Source of the DNA: an uncultured Bacilli bacterium
GTDB lineage: Bacteria; Bacillota_I; Bacilli_A; RF39; UBA660
Length of the DNA stretch: 45,850 nucleotides
Assembly: GCA_947624135.1 (NCBI GenBank)
Contig: CANQIV010000002.1
Coordinates: 1-45,850, forward strand
Direction: 5' to 3'
Shown piece by piece: positions 9,382 to 37,650 of the stretch; positions within the stretch are counted from its first letter, which is position 1, and every line of letters begins with the position of its first letter. The translations under genes and the position numbers were made by a program. The notes beneath the pieces are model-generated. The model worked only from the letters and a program-made list of their open reading frames with translations. It had not been told where the DNA came from and searched no databases.

Positions 9382-9410
9382 ATTTTAGCACATTGTCTTA
9401 TTTATGTCAA
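9382..9410 (-). promoter_or_regulatory. Sigma-A-like promoter for the U32 pair
   Basis: On the minus strand: TTGACA (9410..9405, overlapping the upstream stop), a 17-nt spacer, then TGcTAAAAT (extended -10, 9387..9382). Confidence 0.45.
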
Positions 9411-10714
9411 TTTTTATATTGCATTTCGTTTCCACTATAAAAGCCTTCGCAAAGAGTTGGACTATTAGGTTGATATATACTTGCACAATAATATTTACCA
9501 CCTACATTTGTTTTAAAGTATGGTTTACTACACTTATTATCTATGAAACATGCCATACATGATGTAATACTCTTTTGATCATCTTTATCAGCTACTTTAG
9601 TAACTACAAATTGTACTATTGATATAATCATAAATATCATTACTGCAGCAATCACTTTTTTAACAAGTGATTGTTGTGCTTTTTTTATTTCATCTTCTTT
9701 TGATGCCATTGTTGCTTTAACTAAAGTTATTATACCTACTACTATAAGGATTATTGGTGTCGCAATTTTAAGTAAATTAATAGCCATACTTATAAGTTCT
9801 GGTACTTGTATTGGAATATCATGAGCATCGCCACACATTATAAACCTTAAATTATCTACATTACAATATGAATATTTGTCATAAAGTCCTCCACCTTCAT
9901 TCCAAACAAATCTATGATTTATACACTCTTCTTTTCCTAAGTTAAGTTCATTTATGGATTTTGGGTTAAGAGTTATAGCTAAATCCCATCGAGCAAGTAA
10001 ATGAGTTTCACTGCCATCAATAGGAAAATCTACAATATCACCAAATGTTATAGTGACACGATCACTTTTTAAACATTCACCATAAAATTTGTCATTAATG
10101 TTATTTCCCCCACAAAGCCATTGTCCGTTAGCATTTTGTACATACCAACCACTTTGAATATAACCAGTAGTTTCAAACATCCTATTTGGTATTTTATAGC
10201 CAGCTAATTTAATTATATCCATTTCGTCTGTATTAGCAATATAATCAGAAGTTGTTGTTATTTTTAAATTGTTGATGTCTTCTTTATTATCCTTAAAATA
10301 AAATTTAGTAGTTTGTATATTTCTTAATTCAAATCTTATATCAGTTAATAATGTACTATTATTATTTAAATTATAAATATCATCATATAAAACCAAGTAC
10401 TTGTTATTATCGGTCGTGTTAATTTGAGCAAAAGCTGGACATTTACCACTTGCTATTATTGATGAAATATCATCCTCATTTCCTTCTCTATTTGCGTCAA
10501 TTAAATGATATTTTTTACCATTTTCATCATTATAATTAGTAAAATCAGGGTTAGTACTCCAAACATTTAGTGTTGTATCAAGTTCAATATCAAATTTTAT
10601 CCATATAACATCATCATCAACGCCTTGATAAGTACATGTTAATGCTGCAGCATGTATCCCAAAACAAAGAAATGTTATTAAAAATATTACTAAATAATTA
10701 ATTTTTCTTTTCAT
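9407..10714 (-). CDS. Secreted, membrane-anchored surface protein: large Cys-containing ectodomain fused to the C-terminal two-TM pilin-like module (paralogue P1)
   Basis: It has a signal peptide (MKRKINYLVIFLITFLCFGIHAAA). A GY..GWY...ARW segment resembles a Listeria/Bacteroides (Flg_new) repeat. The C-terminus IATPIILIVVG...SKEDEIKKAQQSLVKKVIAAV...SCMACFIDNKC matches the family at 32370-35312. There is an ATGA overlap with pduL and AGGAGAG SD. Confidence 0.8.
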   Translation of the reverse strand: MKRKINYLVIFLITFLCFGIHAAALTCTYQGVDDDVIWIKFDIELDTTLNVWSTNPDFTNYNDENGKKYHLIDANREGNEDDISSIIASGKCPAFAQINTTDNNKYLVLYDDIYNLNNNSTLLTDIRFELRNIQTTKFYFKDNKEDINNLKITTTSDYIANTDEMDIIKLAGYKIPNRMFETTGYIQSGWYVQNANGQWLCGGNNINDKFYGECLKSDRVTITFGDIVDFPIDGSETHLLARWDLAITLNPKSINELNLGKEECINHRFVWNEGGGLYDKYSYCNVDNLRFIMCGDAHDIPIQVPELISMAINLLKIATPIILIVVGIITLVKATMASKEDEIKKAQQSLVKKVIAAVMIFMIISIVQFVVTKVADKDDQKSITSCMACFIDNKCSKPYFKTNVGGKYYCASIYQPNSPTLCEGFYSGNEMQYKN

Positions 10715-11346: not shown

Positions 11347-11727
11347 GTGAATAATAGCTATTTAAATAACACTGTTTTTCCAGGAAAACCAATTTATTCT
11401 GGTAATATACCTACTCCAAATCAAACTACCGCACCTACTAATATGCAGGAATATATACCAAATGAACAATCATATATTGAAAATATTTTAAGAGTTAATA
11501 AAGGAAAAAGAGTATCTGTTTATCAATCTTTTGCAGATTCTGGAGAATGGAAAGATAGAATATTTACTGGAATTATAGAGCAATCAGGAAGAGATCATAT
11601 TATTTTAAGTGATCCAACTACTGGTAATTGGTATTTGCTTCTCATGATATATGTAAACTTTATAAAATTTGATGAAGAAATAAATACTGTTGAGCAGTTT
11701 TATCCATCAAATCCGTCTAACAGTTGA
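11347..11727 (+). CDS. gerQ: Spore coat protein GerQ-like
   Basis: The core QSYIENILRVNKGKRVSVYQSF...FTGIIEQSGRDHIILSDPTTGNWYLLLMIYVNFIKF matches the GerQ/YwdL pattern. The start is GTG. Confidence 0.75.
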   Translation: MNNSYLNNTVFPGKPIYSGNIPTPNQTTAPTNMQEYIPNEQSYIENILRVNKGKRVSVYQSFADSGEWKDRIFTGIIEQSGRDHIILSDPTTGNWYLLLMIYVNFIKFDEEINTVEQFYPSNPSNS

Positions 11728-11773
11728 TAATTTTATAAAATTTTGATATAATTAATCTAGGTTAGGTGGTACG

Positions 11774-12316
11774 ATGAATACATTTATAATAACGATTGCA
11801 ATAGTTATTGTTGTGGATTTAATTTTAATATTACTAGTATCTAGTTATAATCATTTTCAAGATTATATTATTAGAATTAACGAAGCAGAGGTAAATATAG
11901 ATGCAACACTTAGAAAAAGATTTGATTTACTTAATAAATCTATTGGTATTATTAAAGAAACCACAAAAACAGAAGATGATGTCTTAGATATAATACCTAA
12001 AATAAGATCAAAAAAGTTAACTAACTTTGAATTAGATAGAGAATTATATGACGCAATTAATGAATTTCATGTTATAAAAGATAAATACTTAGAGTTACAA
12101 TCTTGCAAAGAATTTTTAAAGATTGAAATTAATTTAATTGAATCTGAATCTGAAATAGTTGGTCTTAGAAAATATTATAATGATATTATCACTGATTATA
12201 ATAAATTAGTTAAATCATTTCCATCTAATTTAATAGCAACCTTAAAAAATTATAAAACAAAAGAATACTTTGATGGTAATAATATAGATAATGAAAAAGA
12301 AACTGTTAAACTTTAG
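11774..12316 (+). CDS. lemA: LemA family membrane protein
   Basis: N-terminal TM followed by YNHFQDYIIRINEAEVNIDATLRKRFDLL, typical of LemA. SD is GGTGG. Confidence 0.85.
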   Translation: MNTFIITIAIVIVVDLILILLVSSYNHFQDYIIRINEAEVNIDATLRKRFDLLNKSIGIIKETTKTEDDVLDIIPKIRSKKLTNFELDRELYDAINEFHVIKDKYLELQSCKEFLKIEINLIESESEIVGLRKYYNDIITDYNKLVKSFPSNLIATLKNYKTKEYFDGNNIDNEKETVKL

Positions 12317-12744
12317 TTTCTTTTATTTTTTCTTCTAATAAATATAAACATAAATAATAATATAAAGAATATACTTAAAGCAATTATTACATAGTTTCTA
12401 TTAAGTTCAATTGAAATTTTATCTATTGTTTCATTTGTATCGTTAACATCATCAACTATTTTTAATATATATTCTCCTTCTTTAGAATAAGAATAATGTT
12501 CTCTTACATAGTTTGCTAAATACTTTTCATCATTAAATTTCTCTATATCTATTTTAAGTTGATCTGCTTCTTGTTGGAGTTCTAAATATTTTTCTTCTAA
12601 ATGTTTTTTTTCTATAGTTAAATTATAAATAGTAACTAAATTATATAATAAACTAACTATAAAAACGATTATACATACTAAACTAAGTGGTCCAAGTATT
12701 ATCAGTCTTGATTTTGTTTGTTTTGAAATTTTACCCTTAGTCAT
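12313..12744 (-). CDS. divIC: Septum formation initiator DivIC/FtsB family protein, with an extra C-terminal TM segment
   Basis: TM plus coiled coil (EKKHLEEKYLELQQEADQLKIDIEKF) plus YVREHYSYSKEGEYI. It follows yabP-yabQ as in Bacillus. Start ATG 12744 has GGTGA upstream. The ORF track start is 12789. Confidence 0.75.
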   Translation of the reverse strand: MTKGKISKQTKSRLIILGPLSLVCIIVFIVSLLYNLVTIYNLTIEKKHLEEKYLELQQEADQLKIDIEKFNDEKYLANYVREHYSYSKEGEYILKIVDDVNDTNETIDKISIELNRNYVIIALSIFFILLFMFIFIRRKNKRN

Positions 12745-12766
12745 ACTATCACCATATAATATTCTA

Positions 12767-13054
12767 TCATTTTTTAGAATGTTTTGCAATTAACTTTATT
12801 ATTAAATCATATAGTATAAATCCAATTATAATACTTATTATTGAATATATATGAAATATAGCATACCCTATTTTTTGTATACCAATAAAATATAAAATAG
12901 TAATGAGTGTTACTAAAAGGATAGATAATATAATTTTTATATATTTTTTATATTGTTTTACTTTTTCATTAAACCATTCTAGTAAAAAAGAAAAAAAGAA
13001 ACCAAAAAAAAGTGAAAAAATAATTAATTTAATTTGAATATTTAAATCAATCAT
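12767..13054 (-). CDS. yabQ: Spore cortex biosynthesis protein YabQ-like
   Basis: 95-aa polytopic protein immediately after yabP with a 4-nt overlap. Confidence 0.7.
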   Translation of the reverse strand: MIDLNIQIKLIIFSLFFGFFFSFLLEWFNEKVKQYKKYIKIILSILLVTLITILYFIGIQKIGYAIFHIYSIISIIIGFILYDLIIKLIAKHSKK

Positions 13055-13335
13055 TTAAATAATTTAGCAAGTATGCTTTCTTTATTTTCTTGTTTCTTTT
13101 CTTTTTCTAAATAACTTAAACTATCTATTTTCCCTTTAATAACTACATCTCCTTGATATGTATCTAACTTAATAATTTCTAAATTAGCTCCTTTTATTTG
13201 CATATATCCCATATTTGTTTCAAGTAAAAATTCTGATTCATCAAAATTATCTATTTTCTTTACTCCACTAATATTTATATTTTTTCTTTGAGTAATACTT
13301 ATATTATGAGTACCAGTTACTATATCCTTGTCCAT
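13051..13335 (-). CDS. yabP: Sporulation protein YabP
   Basis: 94 aa. The segment ISGVKKIDNFDESEFLLETNMGYMQIKGANLEIIKLD...VVIKGKIDSLSY fits the YabP pattern. Confidence 0.8.
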   Translation of the reverse strand: MDKDIVTGTHNISITQRKNINISGVKKIDNFDESEFLLETNMGYMQIKGANLEIIKLDTYQGDVVIKGKIDSLSYLEKEKKQENKESILAKLFK

Positions 13336-13389
13336 ATAATCACCTACTTAAAGTTATTCAATAAAAATTATTTTATGAATATTTTAGTC

Positions 13390-13415
13390 AAAAAAAGAAA
13401 ACTCTATAAGAGTTT
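13390..13415 (-). terminator. Rho-independent terminator after spoVG
   Basis: On the minus strand: AAACTCT-TAT-AGAGTTT followed by TCTTTTTTT. It overlaps the spoVG stop. Confidence 0.65.
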
Positions 13416-13671
13416 ATTCTTCAGCTTTATTATATTCTTCAAATATAGCATCTTCAAAAATTTTTCTTGTTTCTGCATTAATTGGGTGTGCGATATCATG
13501 ATATTCACCCTCTGCATTCTTTCTACTTGGCATTGCAATAAACAATCCATCTTTACCTTCGATTATTCTAATATCACGAACTACGAAGCAATCATCTAAT
13601 ACTACAGAAGCTATTCCTTTCATTCTAGTATCATCATTTTTTTTGTGAACATTGACTGACGTTATTTTCAT
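13414..13671 (-). CDS. spoVG: Septation/regulatory protein SpoVG
   Basis: MKITSVNVHKK...GIASVVLDDCFVVRDIRIIEGKDGLFIAMPSRK...DIAHPIN is a classic SpoVG sequence. Confidence 0.93.
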   Translation of the reverse strand: MKITSVNVHKKNDDTRMKGIASVVLDDCFVVRDIRIIEGKDGLFIAMPSRKNAEGEYHDIAHPINAETRKIFEDAIFEEYNKAEE

Positions 13672-16437: not shown

Positions 16438-17484
16438 TTAGAAAATTCCACATGAATTATAGTTAAATCCCATTTTAGTAATTACAAATTCAAGTATAAA
16501 TGGTACTATAAATATTAAAGCTGCAATTATTAAACGTTTCATAAATTTTTGTTGAGCTTTTTTCATTTCATCGTCTTTATCCGCACCTATGGCTTTCATA
16601 AAATCAATTATACTAAGTATTATTATTAAAGCTGGTACAAGATATTTTATCCATTTTAGTATATTTACTATGAAAGCTATTAACCTATCTGAAAAACCAC
16701 AGTTTCCTGATGCTCCACCCTTACCTTCTAAAGCATATATCTCACTTTCTAAATTCATACATTGAACAACACAGGGATCATAATAATTTCCACTACCAAG
16801 CTTTTGCTTACAATATTCTTTTAAATTTTCTTTTAAGACATTATAATTATTAACTCTATCTTCTTCACAAGACGAACTATTTTTACAATCATCTGAATTA
16901 TATTTTTTTAGTTGACTAAAATAATTATTATATGTAACGCAATATGAAAGACCATTGTCATCTACATTTGGTTTAGTTACAGTATTTGCACGATACCATT
17001 CATAATCTATTTCAGCTTCATAACACTTTTCTGTTTTTAATTCTTTACCATCTGATAAAGTATATTTTTTTTGTCCTTTTGATTTTGCTACTTCGTCTGC
17101 ATATTCCCATAAACCTTTATTAATGATGATACCTCGATCTATTTCTGTTATATTTGTGCAAACTTTAACACTTTTCGGACATAAATCTGTACCATTTGAT
17201 GTAAGCACTTGTACTATAGATTCTTCATTATAACTACTATCCTTTATTAATGGATCTAATATTTCAATAGTTTGACTAACGTTATTATAGGACTCTGAAT
17301 ATAATGCAGTTATTGTTAAATTAGTTTTATCAATTTCTAAACTACCTGTATATGTTTTGTCACCACCCGAAGTTCCTTTTGCATCCACTGTTGTATAAGC
17401 ACAATAATATGTGTCTGCTTTTACACTTAAATTAAATGTCATAAATAAAGCAATTACAAATAGTATATTATATATTTTTTTCAT
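16438..17484 (-). CDS. Secreted Cys-rich surface protein ending in a divergent copy of the two-TM pilin-like module (paralogue P2)
   Basis: It has a signal peptide (MKKIYNILFVIALFMTFNLSVKA). The C-terminus is YLVPALIIILSIIDFMKAIGADKDDEMKKAQQKFMKRLIIAALIF...NSCGIF. Start ATG 17484 has AAGGA upstream. The ORF track start is 17493. Confidence 0.75.
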   Translation of the reverse strand: MKKIYNILFVIALFMTFNLSVKADTYYCAYTTVDAKGTSGGDKTYTGSLEIDKTNLTITALYSESYNNVSQTIEILDPLIKDSSYNEESIVQVLTSNGTDLCPKSVKVCTNITEIDRGIIINKGLWEYADEVAKSKGQKKYTLSDGKELKTEKCYEAEIDYEWYRANTVTKPNVDDNGLSYCVTYNNYFSQLKKYNSDDCKNSSSCEEDRVNNYNVLKENLKEYCKQKLGSGNYYDPCVVQCMNLESEIYALEGKGGASGNCGFSDRLIAFIVNILKWIKYLVPALIIILSIIDFMKAIGADKDDEMKKAQQKFMKRLIIAALIFIVPFILEFVITKMGFNYNSCGIF

Positions 17485-18199
17485 ATTCCACATCCTTTTT
17501 TACATATATTTTATTAATTATTAAACCAACTAGTCCACCTATAAAACCTGCTATAACTAATATTAAAAATCCTATATATTCATTATAAATGTCAAAATTA
17601 ATTAATACCTGACTAGGTCTATTATAATTTGTTCCAAAATCATAATTTATACAATAAGTAATAAGTAATATTCCAATCGAACTTATTGAAGATTTTAATA
17701 AATCTTTAAATTTAAAATGGAGTTTATTAATTCCCATAATTAAAGTAACAAAAACAAGAATTAAATGGTGGCTTATAAACAATGAATAAAATAGAAATGT
17801 ATCTATACCACCTAAAACATCTGGAAAAATTATCGCCCAAAATGAACCAATCCATGTAAGGCCATATATTATTTTATAAAATGGTTTATAATTCATTATT
17901 AAACTAAGTACAAATAAATAATTTACAATATGACAATAATAGAGTGATAAATGTATTTTTACATTATATATTCCATAATACATATATGATCCTCTATATA
18001 TAAACATATTAAGTAATATTATTATTGAAATAATTATTCTAATTTTTTTGAAATTTTTTTTAGTCTTTAATTTATCATTATCTTTTAATTTATATACGAT
18101 TATAAATAAAATAATTGTTACTATAGTCATAAATAGATGTTGGATTCCAAACATTTTAAATGGAAATCTATTATTTCTTGATAACAAAAAATTTTTCAT
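17468..18199 (-). CDS. Polytopic integral membrane protein, possibly YwaF/TIGR02206-like
   Basis: At least 6 hydrophobic segments and an F..FG.QH motif near the N-terminus. ATG 18199 has GAGG 8 nt upstream. The track start 18214 is a GTG. The family call is tentative. Confidence 0.55.
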   Translation of the reverse strand: MKNFLLSRNNRFPFKMFGIQHLFMTIVTIILFIIVYKLKDNDKLKTKKNFKKIRIIISIIILLNMFIYRGSYMYYGIYNVKIHLSLYYCHIVNYLFVLSLIMNYKPFYKIIYGLTWIGSFWAIIFPDVLGGIDTFLFYSLFISHHLILVFVTLIMGINKLHFKFKDLLKSSISSIGILLITYCINYDFGTNYNRPSQVLINFDIYNEYIGFLILVIAGFIGGLVGLIINKIYVKKDVEYEKNI

Positions 18200-19982: not shown

Positions 19983-20007
19983 AAAAAAAATAAGCAGAAA
20001 CTGCTTA
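19983..20007 (-). terminator. Rho-independent terminator closing the rhodanese / T4SS transcription unit
   Basis: On the minus strand: TAAGCAG-TTT-CTGCTTA followed by TTTTTTTT. It overlaps the rhodanese stop codon. Confidence 0.75.
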
Positions 20008-20292
20008 TTCACTTAAAATCCATGCCTCATACCCACCTTGAATATTTACTACACTAAATCCTTTATTTGTAAGTATTTGACATAATTTTCTACTTTGTAT
20101 TCCTTTTTGACAATATATATAATATCTATTACTTTTATTTAAATATTTATCTGGATTTATTAATAATTGATTTAATTCTATATTTACTGCATTTTTTATA
20201 TGATTATTATTGTATTGTTCCATGTTCCTTATATCTATTAAGTTTATATTATCAAGTTTTTTGAGTTCAGATACAGAAATACTATTAATCAT
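20005..20292 (-). CDS. Single-domain rhodanese-like sulfurtransferase
   Basis: 95 aa with active-site loop YCQKGIQS and C-terminal GGYEAW. Confidence 0.85.
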   Translation of the reverse strand: MINSISVSELKKLDNINLIDIRNMEQYNNNHIKNAVNIELNQLLINPDKYLNKSNRYYIYCQKGIQSRKLCQILTNKGFSVVNIQGGYEAWILSE

Positions 20293-23422: not shown

Positions 23423-24847
23423 CTATAATCCAAACATATCATATCTAAATTCTATTTTTTGATTTAATTGATAAACTGTATAATCATTTTGTTCACAAAC
23501 TGTAGTTCTAGATTCTTCACTACAATTGTCATAATCAGTACATGATGGATTTGTAACGCAATAATTATCATCATTATATATATATTTTAATACACCACAT
23601 CCACCAAGTCCAGAACTACCTGGATTATATCTATAATCTCCTACCCAAGAATATACTGATTGCATACCTGCTAGTGTTCCAGGTAATCCATGCCCTGCAT
23701 CATCACAACCTGCATTATGTCTATCGTTATATCTTTGTGTAATCATAGAAGCAAGGCTTCCACCTTCATTATATTTTGAGAGTACCTCAGCATAAGCTGC
23801 TACTCCTTCTGACATACTTGAAAATGTTGGCCCATCACTACAAGTTTTTCCATTTGGTATATTTATTCCCCAATAATTTCCTGTATATGCACAAGGTATA
23901 AAACTTGATTCTGCCCTTGCAGTTACAACTACAAGTTCTGGATTTACATTATTTTCTACCGAAGCATCATATATTTCTTCTGCTTTTGATAAAAAATTAT
24001 TTTTAAAATTTTCATCATGTTTTCTATCATAATAATCTTGCATTTTTGCTACAAACTCTGCTTTTGATAAAGATGTTGTAGTTAGTGAAAATGAATCTGA
24101 AGATGCAGATGATGATGATAATGGTCTTGGATCATTAAAATCAATAAATGGTTCTGGATCTATTCTATCATCATTGACATTATATATTTCAAAATGTAGA
24201 TGGATTCCAAGTGAAAATCCACTATTTCCCATTTTACCTATAACTTGTCCTTGTTCAACAACATCGCCAGCCATTACTGTTATACTACCTTTAGCTAAAT
24301 GTGCATAATTTGTATAAGTACCATCAGCATGTTTAATTTTTACATGGTTTCCCCATCCACCAGCATCATTGGGATTTCCATTATCTTCAAAATTAATTTG
24401 AGAACTATCTGTTGGATAAACTACTACTCCGCTTTTAGAAGCTATTATATTTATCTCACCTACTACAGTTCCACCATCAATAGCAAAATCTATTCCTTTA
24501 TGTGGACTATCTCCTCTAAAGGCTTCTTGACTTTCAAAATGTGAAGATATAGATGACGCAGGTGGCATACCATCAGCATACAATTTTCCATTAACCTCTC
24601 TTGTTTCATTACTACCTATTGGTAACCAATATTTATTAGAATTAGTAGCAGGTTTTATTTTTACCTCTTCTACTTTTTCACCAGCTAAATCTTCATACTG
24701 TTCTTTCGCATCATATATTTCATTAATCAAATTTTCTATAGTTGACTCATTTTCTGAATTAATATATTCGTATGCATATATAATATTTTGATTAAAGTAA
24801 AATAATGTTAATAACACTATAACTAACTTACTTATTTTTTTTAACAT
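23423..24847 (-). CDS. Secreted bifunctional cell-wall hydrolase: M23 metallopeptidase plus a C-terminal lysozyme-like (SLT/GH73-type) domain
   Basis: Signal/anchor at the N-terminus. M23 motifs HKGIDF and GIHLHFE are present. The C-terminal part has TARAESSF...NYWGINIP, resembling the catalytic Glu region of muramidase/glucosaminidase domains. Confidence 0.8.
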   Translation of the reverse strand: MLKKISKLVIVLLTLFYFNQNIIYAYEYINSENESTIENLINEIYDAKEQYEDLAGEKVEEVKIKPATNSNKYWLPIGSNETREVNGKLYADGMPPASSISSHFESQEAFRGDSPHKGIDFAIDGGTVVGEINIIASKSGVVVYPTDSSQINFEDNGNPNDAGGWGNHVKIKHADGTYTNYAHLAKGSITVMAGDVVEQGQVIGKMGNSGFSLGIHLHFEIYNVNDDRIDPEPFIDFNDPRPLSSSSASSDSFSLTTTSLSKAEFVAKMQDYYDRKHDENFKNNFLSKAEEIYDASVENNVNPELVVVTARAESSFIPCAYTGNYWGINIPNGKTCSDGPTFSSMSEGVAAYAEVLSKYNEGGSLASMITQRYNDRHNAGCDDAGHGLPGTLAGMQSVYSWVGDYRYNPGSSGLGGCGVLKYIYNDDNYCVTNPSCTDYDNCSEESRTTVCEQNDYTVYQLNQKIEFRYDMFGL

Positions 24848-32369: not shown

Positions 32370-32756
32370 TTATTCAACTACATCAGCAGGTTCGCAAGCA
32401 TTAACACTTTCTTCACCTGTTATAAAGCAATTAAAGCATTTAACTACAGATGGAGCATCTTTACCAGATACGAATCTAATAATAGTTTGAGTTAATTGTA
32501 TTACAAAGAATACTATTACAGCAGCAACTATTCTTTTTATAAAAGTTTGTTGACCTTTTTTAATTTCATCTTCCTTAGAAGCCATTACTGCCTTTCCTAA
32601 ATCTAACATACCAAATACTATTAATAATATTGGTACTACAATTTTAATAATCAAAACTATTGTTGATATTACTTTTGGAAATGTACCAGAAAACACTAAG
32701 CCACCTGAACCACAAGTGTAATCTAAATCCATTGAAGCTTTCGCTAAAAACATCAT
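32370..32756 (-). CDS. Two-TM pilin-like protein with VirB2/TrbC-like topology (paralogue P3), candidate major subunit
   Basis: 128 aa: YTCGSGG...VVPILLIVFGMLDLGKAVMASKEDEIKKGQQTFIKRIVAAVIVFFV...KCFNCFITGEESVNAC. It has its own promoter, AGGAGG SD and terminator. Confidence 0.75.
   Translation of the reverse strand: MMFLAKASMDLDYTCGSGGLVFSGTFPKVISTIVLIIKIVVPILLIVFGMLDLGKAVMASKEDEIKKGQQTFIKRIVAAVIVFFVIQLTQTIIRFVSGKDAPSVVKCFNCFITGEESVNACEPADVVE
32503..32573. repeat. 71-nt segment near-identical (single mismatch) to 34987-35057
   Basis: ACAAAGAATACTATTACAGCAGCAACTATTCTTTTTATAAAAGTTTGTTGACCTTTTTT is identical in both copies. One T/A difference follows, then ATTTCATCTTC is again identical. Confidence 0.85.
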
Positions 32757-32779
32757 ATTTTTTCCTCCTAATCAATTAA

Positions 32780-32809
32780 ATTATAATATATATTGATACT
32801 AAATGTCAA
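32780..32809 (-). promoter_or_regulatory. Near-consensus sigma-A promoter for P3
   Basis: On the minus strand: TTGACA (32809..32804), an 18-nt spacer, then TATAAT (32785..32780). AGGAGG SD follows. Confidence 0.6.
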
Positions 32810-32814
32810 TATTT

Positions 32815-33939
32815 TTATTTTATTATATATGGATTTTCACTTGAACCAATACCTTCAGTGTATAATTCATTACCATCTACATATATAACGATATTATAAT
32901 CATTATAATCATTCGCATTTGTAGTACGCATCATACCATTGGATAAATATATTACTCCATATGTATTATCACTTACAGAGTTTAAAGTCCAAGTTGATTG
33001 AGCTACTCTATATAAATAGTTATAGTTATTGCAAGCTCTAGAATTTGTAGAATTACAATCTTGATCTAAACTAGCAGATGCATAATCAGATACATTTATT
33101 AGTGATATTACTTGTCCTTGTAATACCTCAGAACAATCTGTACTTTTGTTTATGGAATAATCATTTGATGAACGTTTTCCTATACAAACATCATAAGCTA
33201 CAATGTGCTCTCTAGCTTTTTTACTTATTACTTTAGAATTGTTATAATCATTTAGTAAATATTTTAATATTTGACTATCTTTATAAATATTTTTCCCATA
33301 ATAATGTTCAACATCAACATTATATTTATTATCCCAAATTCTATCTATATCTTCAGAATCTTCTTTAACTAATTTTAAAACTCCATTTGAATCTATGCTC
33401 ATTATTCTATAGTTAACCCCAAAGAATGTTATATAATTTTTAGGATTATCTCCTTTAAATATATATGTATTATCTATTTGATATAATCCTGAATCAGACG
33501 TAACTACATTTTCTTTTAATTTATCTACTAAATGAACTGTAGAATAATCTTTACATTTTAAATCAACTGTATAATTTAAGAATCCTTCTGCATTTTTTTC
33601 AACTGAATTTCCATTTCTTCTTACAGTAACGCTACCTGTACAAGTATCATCTTTAAGAGCCTTCGCAGGATCTTTTAAAGATGTATTTTTTACTAATTCA
33701 TCAAGAGTTACTTTAGCAGTTTGAGCTTCTTTTGTTGGTATCATATCTTTATTTTTAAAGTATACATTTGCAGCTGAAATCATTTTTTTCTCATACGCAT
33801 CATAATTCATTTTACGATTACTACAACCTTGAATGATTGCTAAAAAGATTATTAATAAAATTGGCAACACAAGTAAAGAAATCGCTATTATCAAAAATTT
33901 TCTATCTAATTTTTTTAGTGCATTTATCATGTCTTTCAC
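32815..33939 (-). CDS. N-terminally anchored, Cys-containing surface protein (possible pilus-associated adhesin)
   Basis: 374 aa with one TM (FLIIAISLLVLPILLIIFLAII). The ectodomain has paired Cys (DDTCTGSV...DLKC) and ends in GSSENPYIIK. No confident family assignment. Confidence 0.65.
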   Translation of the reverse strand: MKDMINALKKLDRKFLIIAISLLVLPILLIIFLAIIQGCSNRKMNYDAYEKKMISAANVYFKNKDMIPTKEAQTAKVTLDELVKNTSLKDPAKALKDDTCTGSVTVRRNGNSVEKNAEGFLNYTVDLKCKDYSTVHLVDKLKENVVTSDSGLYQIDNTYIFKGDNPKNYITFFGVNYRIMSIDSNGVLKLVKEDSEDIDRIWDNKYNVDVEHYYGKNIYKDSQILKYLLNDYNNSKVISKKAREHIVAYDVCIGKRSSNDYSINKSTDCSEVLQGQVISLINVSDYASASLDQDCNSTNSRACNNYNYLYRVAQSTWTLNSVSDNTYGVIYLSNGMMRTTNANDYNDYNIVIYVDGNELYTEGIGSSENPYIIK

Positions 33940-33945
33940 CTACTA

Positions 33946-34512
33946 CTATTTACATTCGCCACTTGAATTAACACCATTTAAGAAACAATTAGCGCAATTC
34001 ATTATACCACCATTATTATCTGATACAAAGCTAATTACTAATTTAACTATCGCGATAACAAAGAATACTATTGCTGCAGCAATTACTCTTTTAATCAAAG
34101 TTTGTTGACCTTTTTTTATTTCATCTTCTTTTTGTCCCATAACTGCTTTTACTAAATCCATCATACCAAATACTACAAGTAATACTGGTACTATTATTTG
34201 AATTATCATAATTATGTTATGAACTGTATTTGGAATTTTAGGATCGATATCAACTCCTGGAAGCACTGCTGCACATCCTGACAATTCATTTATCGAAGCT
34301 GTACCTGTAGATGTTGCTCCTGTGGATGTTTTATTTGATTCAGTTGATGTACCTACTTCATCATCCCATTCTAAGCATTCACCTCTTTGTGTATGATTAC
34401 AAGTAGGATCTTGACAAATTGTATCCCATTTTTTACAAGTTCTTGCAGATACATTTGGAATCATCAACATAGTAAGCATAATTAAAGTTACAAATATAAA
34501 TCTTTTTTTCAT
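33946..34512 (-). CDS. Two-TM pilin-like protein (paralogue P4) with signal peptide and an extra Cys-rich / Thr-Ser-Gly-rich N-terminal extension
   Basis: 188 aa: signal peptide ...NVSA, RTCKKWDTICQDPTCNHTQRGEC, then SGCAAV...IVPVLLVVFGMMDLVKAVMGQKEDEIKKGQQTLIKRVIAAAIVFFV...NCANCFLNGVNSSGEC. Confidence 0.75.
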   Translation of the reverse strand: MKKRFIFVTLIMLTMLMIPNVSARTCKKWDTICQDPTCNHTQRGECLEWDDEVGTSTESNKTSTGATSTGTASINELSGCAAVLPGVDIDPKIPNTVHNIIMIIQIIVPVLLVVFGMMDLVKAVMGQKEDEIKKGQQTLIKRVIAAAIVFFVIAIVKLVISFVSDNNGGIMNCANCFLNGVNSSGECK

Positions 34513-34515
34513 AAA

Positions 34516-34869
34516 TTACCACTCTTTCTTACATTTATTACTTATAAAGCAATCAACGCATTCTACTAAATTTGCTTTGCCAGTATTTGAAACCACACTA
34601 ACTATTAATTTTACAGCAGCTACAACAAAAAATACCATAGCTCCTGCAATTAATCTTTTTACAAATATTTGTCTTCCCTTTTTCATTTCATCTTCTTTTT
34701 GACTTGTTATACCTTTTACTAAATCAAGGCTTCCCATTATTACTAAAATTATTGGAACAGCTATCATTAGTATATTAATAAAATCACTTGTAAGTTCTGG
34801 TATTTTAGCAGGTATTGAGGTTACATTACCACAACTAACTTTACTAGTTAAAATCATAAAATTCATCAT
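34516..34869 (-). CDS. Two-TM pilin-like protein (paralogue P5)
   Basis: 117 aa: VSCGNVTSIPAKIPEL...AVPIILVIMGSLDLVKGITSQKEDEMKKGRQIFVKRLIAGAMVFFV...ECVDCFISNKC. There is an ATGA overlap with P6. Confidence 0.75.
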   Translation of the reverse strand: MMNFMILTSKVSCGNVTSIPAKIPELTSDFINILMIAVPIILVIMGSLDLVKGITSQKEDEMKKGRQIFVKRLIAGAMVFFVVAAVKLIVSVVSNTGKANLVECVDCFISNKCKKEW

Positions 34870-35312
34870 GTATTACCTCCCGTAGTTGTACATTTATTAT
34901 TTATAAAACATTCAATACAATCTACCATATTTCCAGTTTGACTCTTATCAGCTACCATACTAACTACAATTTTTACTGCAGCAAGTACAAAGAATACTAT
35001 TACAGCAGCAACTATTCTTTTTATAAAAGTTTGTTGACCTTTTTTTATTTCATCTTCTTTTTGACCCATTATTCCTTTTACTAAATCAAGGCTTCCAAAA
35101 ATTACAAGAACTATAGGAACAACTATTTGAATTATATTATATATTATATTTACCATTTTGGGTATAGAAGCTGGAATATTATTTACATTTCCACAACTGA
35201 CAACTGAACTTGAGAAATTATCATAACTTATAGCTCCTACAATGTCAATAAATATTACATTAATTAACAATATTATAGTTAAAATTAATATTGTTTTTTT
35301 ACCTTTCTGCAT
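34866..35312 (-). CDS. Two-TM pilin-like protein (paralogue P6) with signal peptide
   Basis: 148 aa: VSCGNVNNIPASIPKM...VVPIVLVIFGSLDLVKGIMGQKEDEIKKGQQTFIKRIVAAVIVFFV...DCIECFINNKC. SD is AGGGGG. Confidence 0.75.
   Translation of the reverse strand: MQKGKKTILILTIILLINVIFIDIVGAISYDNFSSSVVSCGNVNNIPASIPKMVNIIYNIIQIVVPIVLVIFGSLDLVKGIMGQKEDEIKKGQQTFIKRIVAAVIVFFVLAAVKIVVSMVADKSQTGNMVDCIECFINNKCTTTGGNT
34987..35057. repeat. Second copy of the 71-nt near-identical segment (see 32503-32573)
   Basis: Direct repeat in the same orientation, inside P6. It covers the loop/TM2 coding region. Confidence 0.85.
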
Positions 35313-37407: not shown

Positions 37408-37650
37408 TTATTTACACTCTGTACTAATCTGGTCTAGTCCTGTACAATTCTTCTTTTCACCATTGTCACCTATCTCACATGATGCATAACAATGACCATT
37501 ATTCCATACACCACCATTTGATGTACAACAAGAACTTTTTGAGGTATTACTCATCATATTTCTTACTATTACTGTACCTACCGCAAGTACTATAGCTATT
37601 AATACTATTGTTATTACTGTCATGTTTGCCTCTCCAGCTGCTTCTTTCAT
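37408..37650 (-). CDS. Small Cys-rich Flp/Tad-type pilin candidate
   Basis: 80 aa: MKEAAG / EANMTVITIVLIAIVLAVGTVIV, then a 45-residue tail with seven Cys (SSCCTSNGGVWNNGHCYASCEIGDNGEKKNCTGLDQISTEC). It lies immediately downstream of tadC. It has its own promoter, AAAGGAGGAG SD and terminator. Confidence 0.7.
   Translation of the reverse strand: MKEAAGEANMTVITIVLIAIVLAVGTVIVRNMMSNTSKSSCCTSNGGVWNNGHCYASCEIGDNGEKKNCTGLDQISTECK

Follow-up and report, generated by a model that had tools for sequence, protein, structure and literature searches.

What joins the two ends of a small membrane hairpin when each of them carries conserved cysteines? This question is raised by a 45,850-nucleotide stretch of DNA from an uncultured Bacilli bacterium (GTDB lineage Bacteria; Bacillota_I; Bacilli_A; RF39; UBA660), taken from contig CANQIV010000002.1 of assembly GCA_947624135.1 and called here, at its full length, the window. 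Four small open reading frames (ORFs) at 32,370-35,312, named P4, P3, P2 and P1 in the order of reading, each encode a pilin-like module in which one cysteine (Cys) precedes the first transmembrane helix (TM1) and three Cys follow the second (TM2), an arrangement denoted 1+3. A preliminary description, made from the DNA letters alone, had noticed this arrangement and suggested that two disulfides, or metal or thioether links, staple the N- and C-terminal ends of the protein together. The genome itself is small (1.24 Mb in 77 contigs, 94% complete), the window has 26% G+C, and all the genes under discussion lie on its minus strand. We found that the Cys of these modules are kept as pairs, and the best reading of their pattern is that an intramolecular disulfide probably clips the N-terminal end to the C-terminal end.

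The small ORFs share a common plan, consisting of a leader or short N-terminal tail, one Cys, a helix, a loop, a second helix and a tail of the form CxxCF(I/L)...C. The loop between the helices follows the consensus (Q/S)KEDE(I/M)KKGQQ..(I/V)KR. In the numbering of P4, used below, the four Cys are C40, C132, C135 and C141. P2 carries four additional Cys in an N-terminal extension ahead of the 1+3 set, thus 8 in total. The five pairs of motifs quoted in the preliminary description are all present as written, the fifth lying outside the array, in a 435-amino-acid (aa) secreted protein at 9407-10714. The module of this protein has the 1+3 Cys plus 2 more in its tail and matches P4 at E 1.2e-30. 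A search of the same genome also brought out a sixth, divergent module at 16438-17493, overlooked until now, with only 1+1 Cys (GNCGFSD ... NSCGIF).

Within the genus, the module was detected in 24/24 other genomes, at about six copies each. In 32 modules from 12 species, which share 41-62% identity with P4 and whose columns average 38% identity, each of the four Cys is kept throughout (32/32), and together they make up 4 of the 15 invariant columns; Cys represents about 1.0-1.2% of residues in the predicted proteins of the genome. C40, C132 and C135 are each present in 77/77 modules from 20 further arrays of the genus, where the Cys classes, written as (before TM1, after TM2), are (1,3) in 66 modules and (1,5) in 11. 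In these same 77 modules the N-terminal Cys always lies 12-17 residues ahead of TM1, about 10-25 having been given before. When 1.84 billion cluster representatives were searched with a profile, 8629 relatives came up at E <= 0.001, including 328 at E <= 1e-30; among the best 150 of the 8629, Cys occupies the four columns in 145, 150, 149 and 145 sequences. The alignment of homologues that the preliminary description had called for thus supports conservation of its four Cys.

Beyond the genus, the picture changes for the tail. The module occurs in 34/34 sampled genomes of the bacterial family (27 other genera) and in only 4/265 other genomes of the class. Modules of the other genera mostly carry only two outward Cys: the first precedes TM1, and the second follows TM2 and is often found within a W..CW context. 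The classes of 48 ORFs from these genera are (1,1) in 29, (1,3) in 12, (2,1) in 4, and (2,3), (0,0) and (1,8) in one each; in the five (2,x) ORFs the additional Cys sits in the leader or upstream of the start codon. When 111 diverse modules are aligned jointly, only C40 and C132 stay at >= 90%. Also, a search seeded with 25 two-Cys modules returned 754 relatives, and in the best 120 of these both Cys are present in 120/120, with class (1,1) in 119 and (1,3) in 1. Three Cys after TM2, presented earlier as the mark of every full module, therefore hold for the five modules of the window then known; the family-wide core is 1+1, that is the N-terminal Cys plus the first C-terminal Cys, and 1+3 is an elaboration of a subfamily.

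The two further Cys of this elaboration come and go together. Two modules close to the 1+3 type (loci L026 and L028 of genomes G249 and G127, which belong to a single genus) lack both C135 and C141 and keep C40 and C132. The number of C-terminal Cys is 1 or 3 (5, 7 and so on with added domains) and is never 2 in a complete sequence, the sole two (1,2) sequences among 119 stopping short of the third Cys position and being apparently cut off. Added domains likewise bring Cys in twos, with totals of 4, 6, 8 and 12 when signal-peptide Cys are excluded. A tree of 73 modules requires at least 6 switches between "1" and "3 or more" C-terminal Cys, and 2 were seen in none of the modules; as this tree was drawn from TM1, loop and TM2 only, tails excluded, its 79 columns make the count of changes a rough one. 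The spacing of the C135-C141 type is 5 residues in 154 sequences and 7 in 49. Because the additional pair behaves as a unit and odd counts do not occur in complete modules, the data point to an N-to-C disulfide accompanied by an optional local loop. Exported proteins of Firmicutes generally avoid Cys, according to the available text of one survey (PMC2823432), and against this habit the conserved pairs stand out.

An even number of outward Cys kept as pairs, as in disulfide-bonded exported proteins, was also found in the Flp-like pilin of the adjacent Tad-like locus. With 6 Cys in 80 aa (37408-37650), it is as Cys-rich as had been noted. It was found in 23/24 other genomes of the genus, and in 27 full-length sequences, including that of the window and after two partial second hits were dropped, the Cys count is 2 (7 sequences), 4 (12) or 6 (8), so that all 27 are even while the positions shift. 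As the same parity appears in a different protein, this constitutes independent support for disulfides. In this pilin (window; loci L110-L132), an invariant N-terminus, MKEAAGEANMTV(I/V)TIVLIAIVL..., is followed by a fast-changing tail which bears the Cys.

For a clip of this kind, both ends of the module must face the same way, as the preliminary description had supposed from the hairpin topology. In the 77 modules of the genus, lysine and arginine residues average 6.1 in the loop versus 1.4 in the N-tail and 1.8 in the C-tail, and a crude pattern recognises a signal-peptide-like leader in 40/77. Members with a signal peptide have an AxA-like site a few residues upstream of the N-terminal Cys, and leaderless members have a short N-tail which is often acidic. 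In most sequences the last Cys lies 0-3 residues from the C-terminus. Together, the charge distribution and the leaders indicate a cytoplasmic loop and an outward position of all four Cys, in agreement with the earlier view. The leader varies between species: P3 and P1 are leaderless here, with just 13-14 residues ahead of the Cys, and other species of the genus encode P3 orthologues that possess a full leader (e.g., L009:1928-2329). Also, the stop of P4 and the start of P3 share 4 bases, which suggests coupled translation.

An AlphaFold2 (AF2) model of P4, computed from the 111-sequence alignment, reached a predicted local distance difference test score (pLDDT) of 80.2 and a predicted template modelling score (pTM) of 0.60. 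It opens with a signal helix (3-24); C40 sits in a beta hairpin (37-47), two long helices span 49-82 and 86-120, and C132 and C135 are carried by a short helix (127-138). According to this model, the Cys-bearing beta hairpin and short helix would be found at the same outer end of the helical hairpin. Searched with Foldseek against the PDB, the model gave nothing at E <= 0.001, and a wide fold search gave generic helical hairpins only (Z 5.8-6.9). The archaeal conjugative pilins 8dfu_B (Z 6.3) and 8dft_A (Z 5.9) were among these matches, alongside many unrelated proteins.

By sequence comparison, the modules appear to be a divergent branch of the Pfam family T4SS_pilin (PF18895, VirB2-like), predicted two-helix hairpins of a chromosomal type IV secretion system (T4SS) that belongs to the core genome of a small-genome Bacilli family. 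PF18895 matches 47/111 family members at E <= 0.01, with a best E of 5.3e-7, and is the only recurring family; also, 15/16 genomes of the window's family match it at E <= 0.001. A precomputed PF18895.6 domain exists on two close homologues of the 1+1 type, and the closest named ESM Atlas clusters are PF18895. Public records name the homologues just "hypothetical protein [Bacilli bacterium]". The layout of PF18895, with two TM helices, a short cytoplasmic loop and both ends outside, is recovered here from the AF2 helices, the distribution of basic residues and the signal peptides, and its usual context of VirB4, VirB6 and coupling-protein genes is present at the locus. The TrbC/VirB2 family PF04956 has no match at E <= 0.01 in any of the four modules and is absent from the 25 most often matched families (of 32) for the 111 members. 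An NCBIfam scan of the modules found no pilin family, only spurious sub-threshold matches to MscL and MamI.

We also scanned 399 genomes of the phylum for PF18895 and obtained matches in 101. The strongest (33-64 bits) come from genomes of the mycoplasma/spiroplasma type, in which TGA is a sense codon, and the small ORFs of these genomes (translation table 4, judged by eye) have no Cys, or Cys solely inside the helices. Thus, the pair of end Cys characterises the window's family together with a few relatives (e.g., genome G037), and not PF18895 as a whole. Class-level relatives of the host include genomes with TGA read as sense.

From these elements, the following sequence of events can be proposed. 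Export by a signal peptide, or insertion of the short acidic N-tail, would leave both ends of the module outside the membrane. C40, 12-17 residues before TM1, would then form an intramolecular disulfide with C132, the first Cys after TM2, and so tie the ends of the hairpin. In the subfamily of the window, the second Cys of the CxxC motif (C135) would pair with the last Cys (C141) and close a small C-terminal loop. The clip would stabilise the exposed tip of the subunit, both in the membrane pool and in any oligomer or pilus. Electrons would be taken up by a membrane-anchored thioredoxin-fold protein, by small-molecule disulfides or by environmental oxygen. The staple between the two ends proposed in the preliminary description would accordingly hold in so far as the Cys act like disulfide partners, since C40 and C132 are kept at >= 90% and the others are lost in pairs; an undefined cluster of four Cys gives way to a likely C40-C132 bond plus a C135-C141 bond.

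In this scheme, the clip would do the job of head-to-tail peptide cyclisation. The pilins TrbC of RP4, VirB2 of the Ti plasmid and TrhA of the H-pilus are cyclic, their ends being joined by a peptide bond made by a dedicated peptidase. They resemble the present modules in being two-helix hairpins with a cytoplasmic loop and termini outside, and in the covalent joining predicted here; they differ in that the link of the modules would be a disulfide placed a few residues in from each end. No signal-peptidase-like candidate for a cyclase was noted among the ORFs of the window. The likeness to TrbC/VirB2 cyclisation drawn before is therefore retained as a functional analogy and not as family membership, given the absence of a PF04956 match. 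Among the papers listed in literature searches on T4SS pilins, VirB2, PF18895, RF39 and disulfides, none describes a disulfide-clipped VirB2-like pilin.

Which protein could install such a bond? The preliminary description had suggested a search for oxidoreductases of the DsbA/BdbD or VKOR types. A Dsb-type oxidase with a DsbB- or VKOR-type partner did not appear; only membrane-anchored thioredoxin-fold proteins were found in the genome, and among them a tandem thioredoxin-like one. This 298-aa protein, encoded at C24:7135-8028 (-) (locus L019:1108-2001), has an N-terminal anchor, a Ser/Gly linker with SSG repeats and two thioredoxin-like domains with CGWC and CSHC motifs. It scores above the cut-off of the Thioredoxin family and above that of PF13728 TraF (30.5 bits), and it is the only candidate outward-facing thiol-disulfide oxidoreductase that the genome yielded. 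Its relatives occur in 28/34 genomes of the family versus 30/265 others in the class. In genomes G312 (CTAC) and G157 (CIHC), a single-domain membrane-anchored version directly adjoins the pilin array. No thioredoxin-like gene was found within the window. The genome also encodes a cytoplasmic thioredoxin, next to a gene assigned by eye as probably thioredoxin-reductase-like. Clostridial DsbA proteins can act without DsbB or VKOR and are recycled by small disulfides, as stated in the available part of a recent paper (PMC12453122).

Several observations weigh against an intramolecular disulfide clip in a VirB2-like pilin. The four modules of the window all fall under the PF18895 cut-off of 26.6 bits, with 17.7 for P3, 20 for P2, 19 for P1 and no match for P4, and fold searches do not distinguish the module from unrelated hairpins. 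In the 94%-complete genome, no match was obtained to PF01323 (DSBA), PF13462 (Thioredoxin_4, BdbD-like), PF02600 (DsbB), PF07884 (VKOR) or PF02683 (DsbD_TM/CcdA). A thioredoxin-like gene lies within 15 kb of a module in just 9/28 genomes (hand count), a proximity that is suggestive at most, and in a spore-former the thioredoxin-like protein could also be a reductase of the ResA/StoA kind. The organism is anaerobe-like, with a pyruvate:ferredoxin oxidoreductase (PFOR) encoded in the window, and such links were fairly described as unexpected for it. Finally, proteins with an even number of Cys do not predominate in the exported proteome (39 even versus 63 odd before correction for lipoboxes, 45 versus 49 after it, rough figures from home-made gene calls and a crude signal-peptide rule), so that oxidative folding is not a general habit of this cell.

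The main rival to the intramolecular clip is a disulfide between subunits, in which the N-terminal Cys of one protomer would bond to a C-terminal Cys of its neighbour and cross-link a pilus, a sheath or an oligomer. Even parity and paired gain and loss suit such bonds equally, and the four to six paralogues co-encoded in every genome of the genus would permit mixed polymers. However, in a hairpin TM1 begins next to the point where TM2 of the same chain ends, the AF2 monomer has its Cys-bearing segments 37-47 and 127-138 at the same end, and members with bulky head domains keep the pair, which is easier to satisfy within a chain. We thus consider bonds between subunits unlikely. A metal ion held by the four Cys of the 1+3 subfamily, in a knuckle of the Zn(Cys)4 type, would join the ends as well. 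Zinc sites often show CxxC together with two more Cys, and no oxidant would be needed, which would suit an anaerobe in whose genome DsbA, DsbB and VKOR were not found. Nevertheless, the wider family has mostly two outward Cys (119 of the best 120; 29/48), and since two Cys are insufficient to build it, a Cys4 site is disfavoured. Moreover, the additional Cys are gained or lost together while the core pair stays unchanged, and the neighbouring Flp-like pilin is purely even with variable spacing. A metal link, which does not fit the two-Cys majority form, therefore seems very improbable.

The preliminary description had also raised a lipid modification, and the N-terminal Cys might indeed be a site of lipid or other covalent attachment (acylation, thioester or thioether), the C-terminal Cys having another role. 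Contexts such as VVSC and IASC are loosely lipobox-like, yet the Cys lies 3-15 residues past an AxA-type signal-peptidase site and does not abut the hydrophobic core, so that the L-(A/S)-(G/A)-C sequence which directly follows the signal-peptide core of a lipoprotein is not seen around it. Roughly half of the modules are leaderless, and in complete sequences the N-terminal Cys never occurs without a C-terminal partner. For the thioether link also put forward, no lanthipeptide, sactipeptide or radical-SAM family is among the Pfam matches to the ORFs of the window. An attachment site of any of these kinds is scarcely credible to us. A different question is whether the hairpins form a pilus at all. 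They could be membrane anchors or channel-lining parts of the T4SS which present variable outer domains, the Cys pair stabilising a membrane-proximal knob. Many members have large N- or C-terminal domains, including the 435-aa and 351-aa proteins of the window, many of the best 150 representatives are 200-450 aa long, the window modules score under the PF18895 cut-off, and VirB2 pilins are, according to the available text of a study on Patescibacteria (PMC12102498), absent from Gram-positive T4SS classes. On the other hand, the small tandem members (117-148 aa) resemble plain candidates for a major subunit, and according to the same text Patescibacteria likewise have arrays of 2-11 VirB2-like genes. 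The anchor function is a possibility to be kept in mind, though a doubtful one; it concerns function only and is compatible with the disulfide clip.

This chromosomal T4SS of Patescibacteria (Microb Genom 2025, PMC12102498) is, as far as its available text goes, the closest printed description of the locus. There, 2-11 VirB2-like genes of the PF18895/PF04956 type form an array, which a non-pilin gene sometimes interrupts. Both systems are chromosomal, of the monoderm (MPF-FATA-like) kind and carried by reduced genomes; both contain several small, divergent pilin genes that follow one another directly or are interrupted by a single non-pilin gene; and in both a relaxase is usually missing from the cluster, PF18895 being the best match in the window's family. 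The host here differs in being of the class Bacilli, with sporulation and murein genes, and in having Mob_Pre relaxase matches elsewhere in its genome. In its available text, that paper is silent on cysteines or disulfides of the pilins, the lone mention of "cysteine" concerning the CHAP-type VirB1 domain.

Two other systems can be compared. The PF18895 proteins of mycoplasma/spiroplasma-type genomes, which bear the NCBIfam name "Mbov_0395" and which we take to be borne on integrative and conjugative elements (ICE), have the same size and two-helix layout, and their neighbour family of the Mbov_0396 type matches the 676-aa protein of the window; unlike the modules, they have no outward Cys pair. 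To our knowledge, F-pilin itself is not disulfide-bonded. The F-plasmid T4SS is a machine with disulfide-bonded outer parts and its own thioredoxin-fold protein, and the tandem thioredoxin found here matches PF13728 TraF; also, thioredoxin-like relatives adjoin pilin arrays in two genera. The F-plasmid helpers, the disulfide isomerase TrbB and TraF, are periplasmic and Gram-negative, whereas the candidate enzyme here is membrane-anchored in a single-membrane cell, and its suspected substrate is a pilin-like subunit. Disulfide formation encoded by a T4SS has been noted in the available text of a recent article (EMBO J 2025, PMC12624023).

A wider hypothesis, which we advance tentatively and hold to be rather improbable in its entirety, is that a relaxase-less T4SS and a Tad-like pilus form a core equipment of small-genome anaerobic gut Bacilli, paralleling that of epibiotic Patescibacteria, and that a disulfide clip has replaced peptide cyclisation, being installed by an unrecognised membrane-anchored (tandem) thioredoxin oxidase without DsbB or VKOR. 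If this were true, pilins could be "closed" in a way not described before, and a VirB2-type pilus would be on record for the first time in a cell whose envelope is of the Gram-positive type. Should the clip be a disulfide, a means of securing the loose ends of two-helix pilins would have evolved twice, as peptide cyclisation in Proteobacteria and as a disulfide here, and an anaerobe without the classical Dsb machinery would seem to direct oxidative folding at chosen proteins. The presence of a VirB2-like family in 34/34 sampled genomes contrasts with the lack of virB2 homologues stated for Gram-positive T4SS classes in the available text of PMC12102498, a view shared by textbooks and recent reviews. 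Also, the invariant Cys pair offers an experimental handle on an unstudied surface organelle of abundant uncultured gut bacteria.

The genes of the locus are collected in Table 1.

Table 1. Features of the window, and prepilin-like proteins elsewhere in the genome (contig handles C1 to C16).
Feature	Position	Strand	Remarks
435-aa secreted protein	9407..10714	-	Cys-containing head of ~290 aa + C-terminal pilin-like module; IMCGDA ... SCMACFIDNKC
351-aa secreted protein	16438..17493	-	Cys-rich head + divergent pilin-like module, PF18895 23.3 bits
Rhodanese	20005-20292		ordinary, single-domain
VirD4-type coupling protein, 685 aa	20357..22414	-	PF02534 191.6 bits
Secreted M23 peptidase	23423..24847	-	PF01551 81.8 bits; Cys-rich C-terminal part (8 Cys)
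VirB4-like ATPase, 595 aa	27579..29366	-	PF19044 46.1 bits, PF12846 43.3 bits
VirB6/TrbL-like polytopic membrane protein, 676 aa	30242..32272	-	sub-cut-off profile matches
Pilin-like module P1, 128 aa, leaderless	32370..32756	-	1+3 Cys; YTCGSGG ... KCFNCFITGEESVNAC
Non-pilin gene inside array, 371 aa from ATG (371-374-aa gene, 32815-33939)	32815..33930	-	between third and fourth small ORF
Pilin-like module P2, 188 aa	33946..34512	-	1+3 pattern; LSGCAAV ... NCANCFLNGVNSSGEC
Pilin-like module P3, 117 aa	34516..34869	-	1+3 Cys; VSCGNV ... ECVDCFISNKC; leaderless in this species
Pilin-like module P4, 148 aa	34866..35312	-	signal peptide, Cys40, TM1, KEDEIKKGQQ loop, TM2, C132xxC135F...C141; VSCGNV ... 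DCIECFINNKC
Flp-like small pilin, 80 aa	37408..37650	-	6 Cys; adjacent Tad-like locus
Tad/T2SSE-type pilus ATPase, 411 aa	39453..40688	-	PF00437 89 bits
Giant prepilin-like proteins	C1:51426-55685, C16:12400-16062, C8:19935-22823, C3:42512-44284, C6:30244-32010

The VirB6-, VirB4- and VirD4-like genes of the T4SS share their strand with the modules, and the Tad-like pilus set lies on the other side of these. The 676-aa protein matches PF19597 TrbL_4 (25.7 bits, cut-off 27) and NF045889 Mbov_0396 ICE membrane protein (45 bits, cut-off 70), both below threshold. The M23 peptidase is probably the cell-wall hydrolase of the T4SS machine. The 435-aa protein has no Pfam match. The Pfam scan of the window's ORFs gave no match to a relaxase or integrase family, and the flanks of the locus are housekeeping genes (RmuC, rhodanese, ScpA/ScpB). 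With a module that is present family-wide, these features indicate that the T4SS locus behaves as part of the core genome. Elsewhere in the genome, there are two Mob_Pre (MOBV) relaxase matches, at C68:2583-3149 (+) and C1:35410-35913 (-), with 169 and 54 bits respectively; the first is on a 3.3-kb contig which may be a small mobilisable plasmid. Given these matches, the T4SS might yet transfer DNA. Sporulation-type genes (GerQ, YabQ, YabP, SpoVG, DivIC) occupy positions 11347-13671 of the window despite the genome size of 1.24 Mb.

The non-pilin gene that splits the array is present in 20/20 arrays of the genus. The N-terminal helix of its product ends in a lipobox-like (I/V)xQ(G/A/S)C motif, followed by six conserved Cys. 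The AF2 model (pLDDT 81, pTM 0.78) shows a pilin-like N-domain and a larger C-domain. Residues 132-371 of the model resemble the N-terminal part of the immunoglobulin A (IgA) peptidase of Thomasclavelia ramosa, 9qa6_A, with Z 10.7 and a root-mean-square deviation of 4.1 over 182 aligned residues, the next best match having Z 5.0. Residues 40-133 gave weak matches to minor type IV (pseudo)pilins (Z 4.3-5.0). On the basis of this model, the protein may be a tip or adhesin-like subunit.

Fusions are widespread in the family, since many members have the hairpin joined, at the N- or C-terminal side, to large variable outer domains (window 9407-10714 and 16438-17493; P0006-P0151). In some representatives, such as P0055 and P0060, the C-terminal part has a GDS(K/E)-type motif (by eye), and the extension at locus L030 reaches about 390 aa. 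Also, the genome of the window encodes very large proteins (588-1419 aa, the giant prepilin-like proteins of Table 1) with a prepilin-like KAFTL(I/V)ELL... start and 5-26 Cys, which look like a third surface system, of the Com or type IV pilus (T4P) kind.

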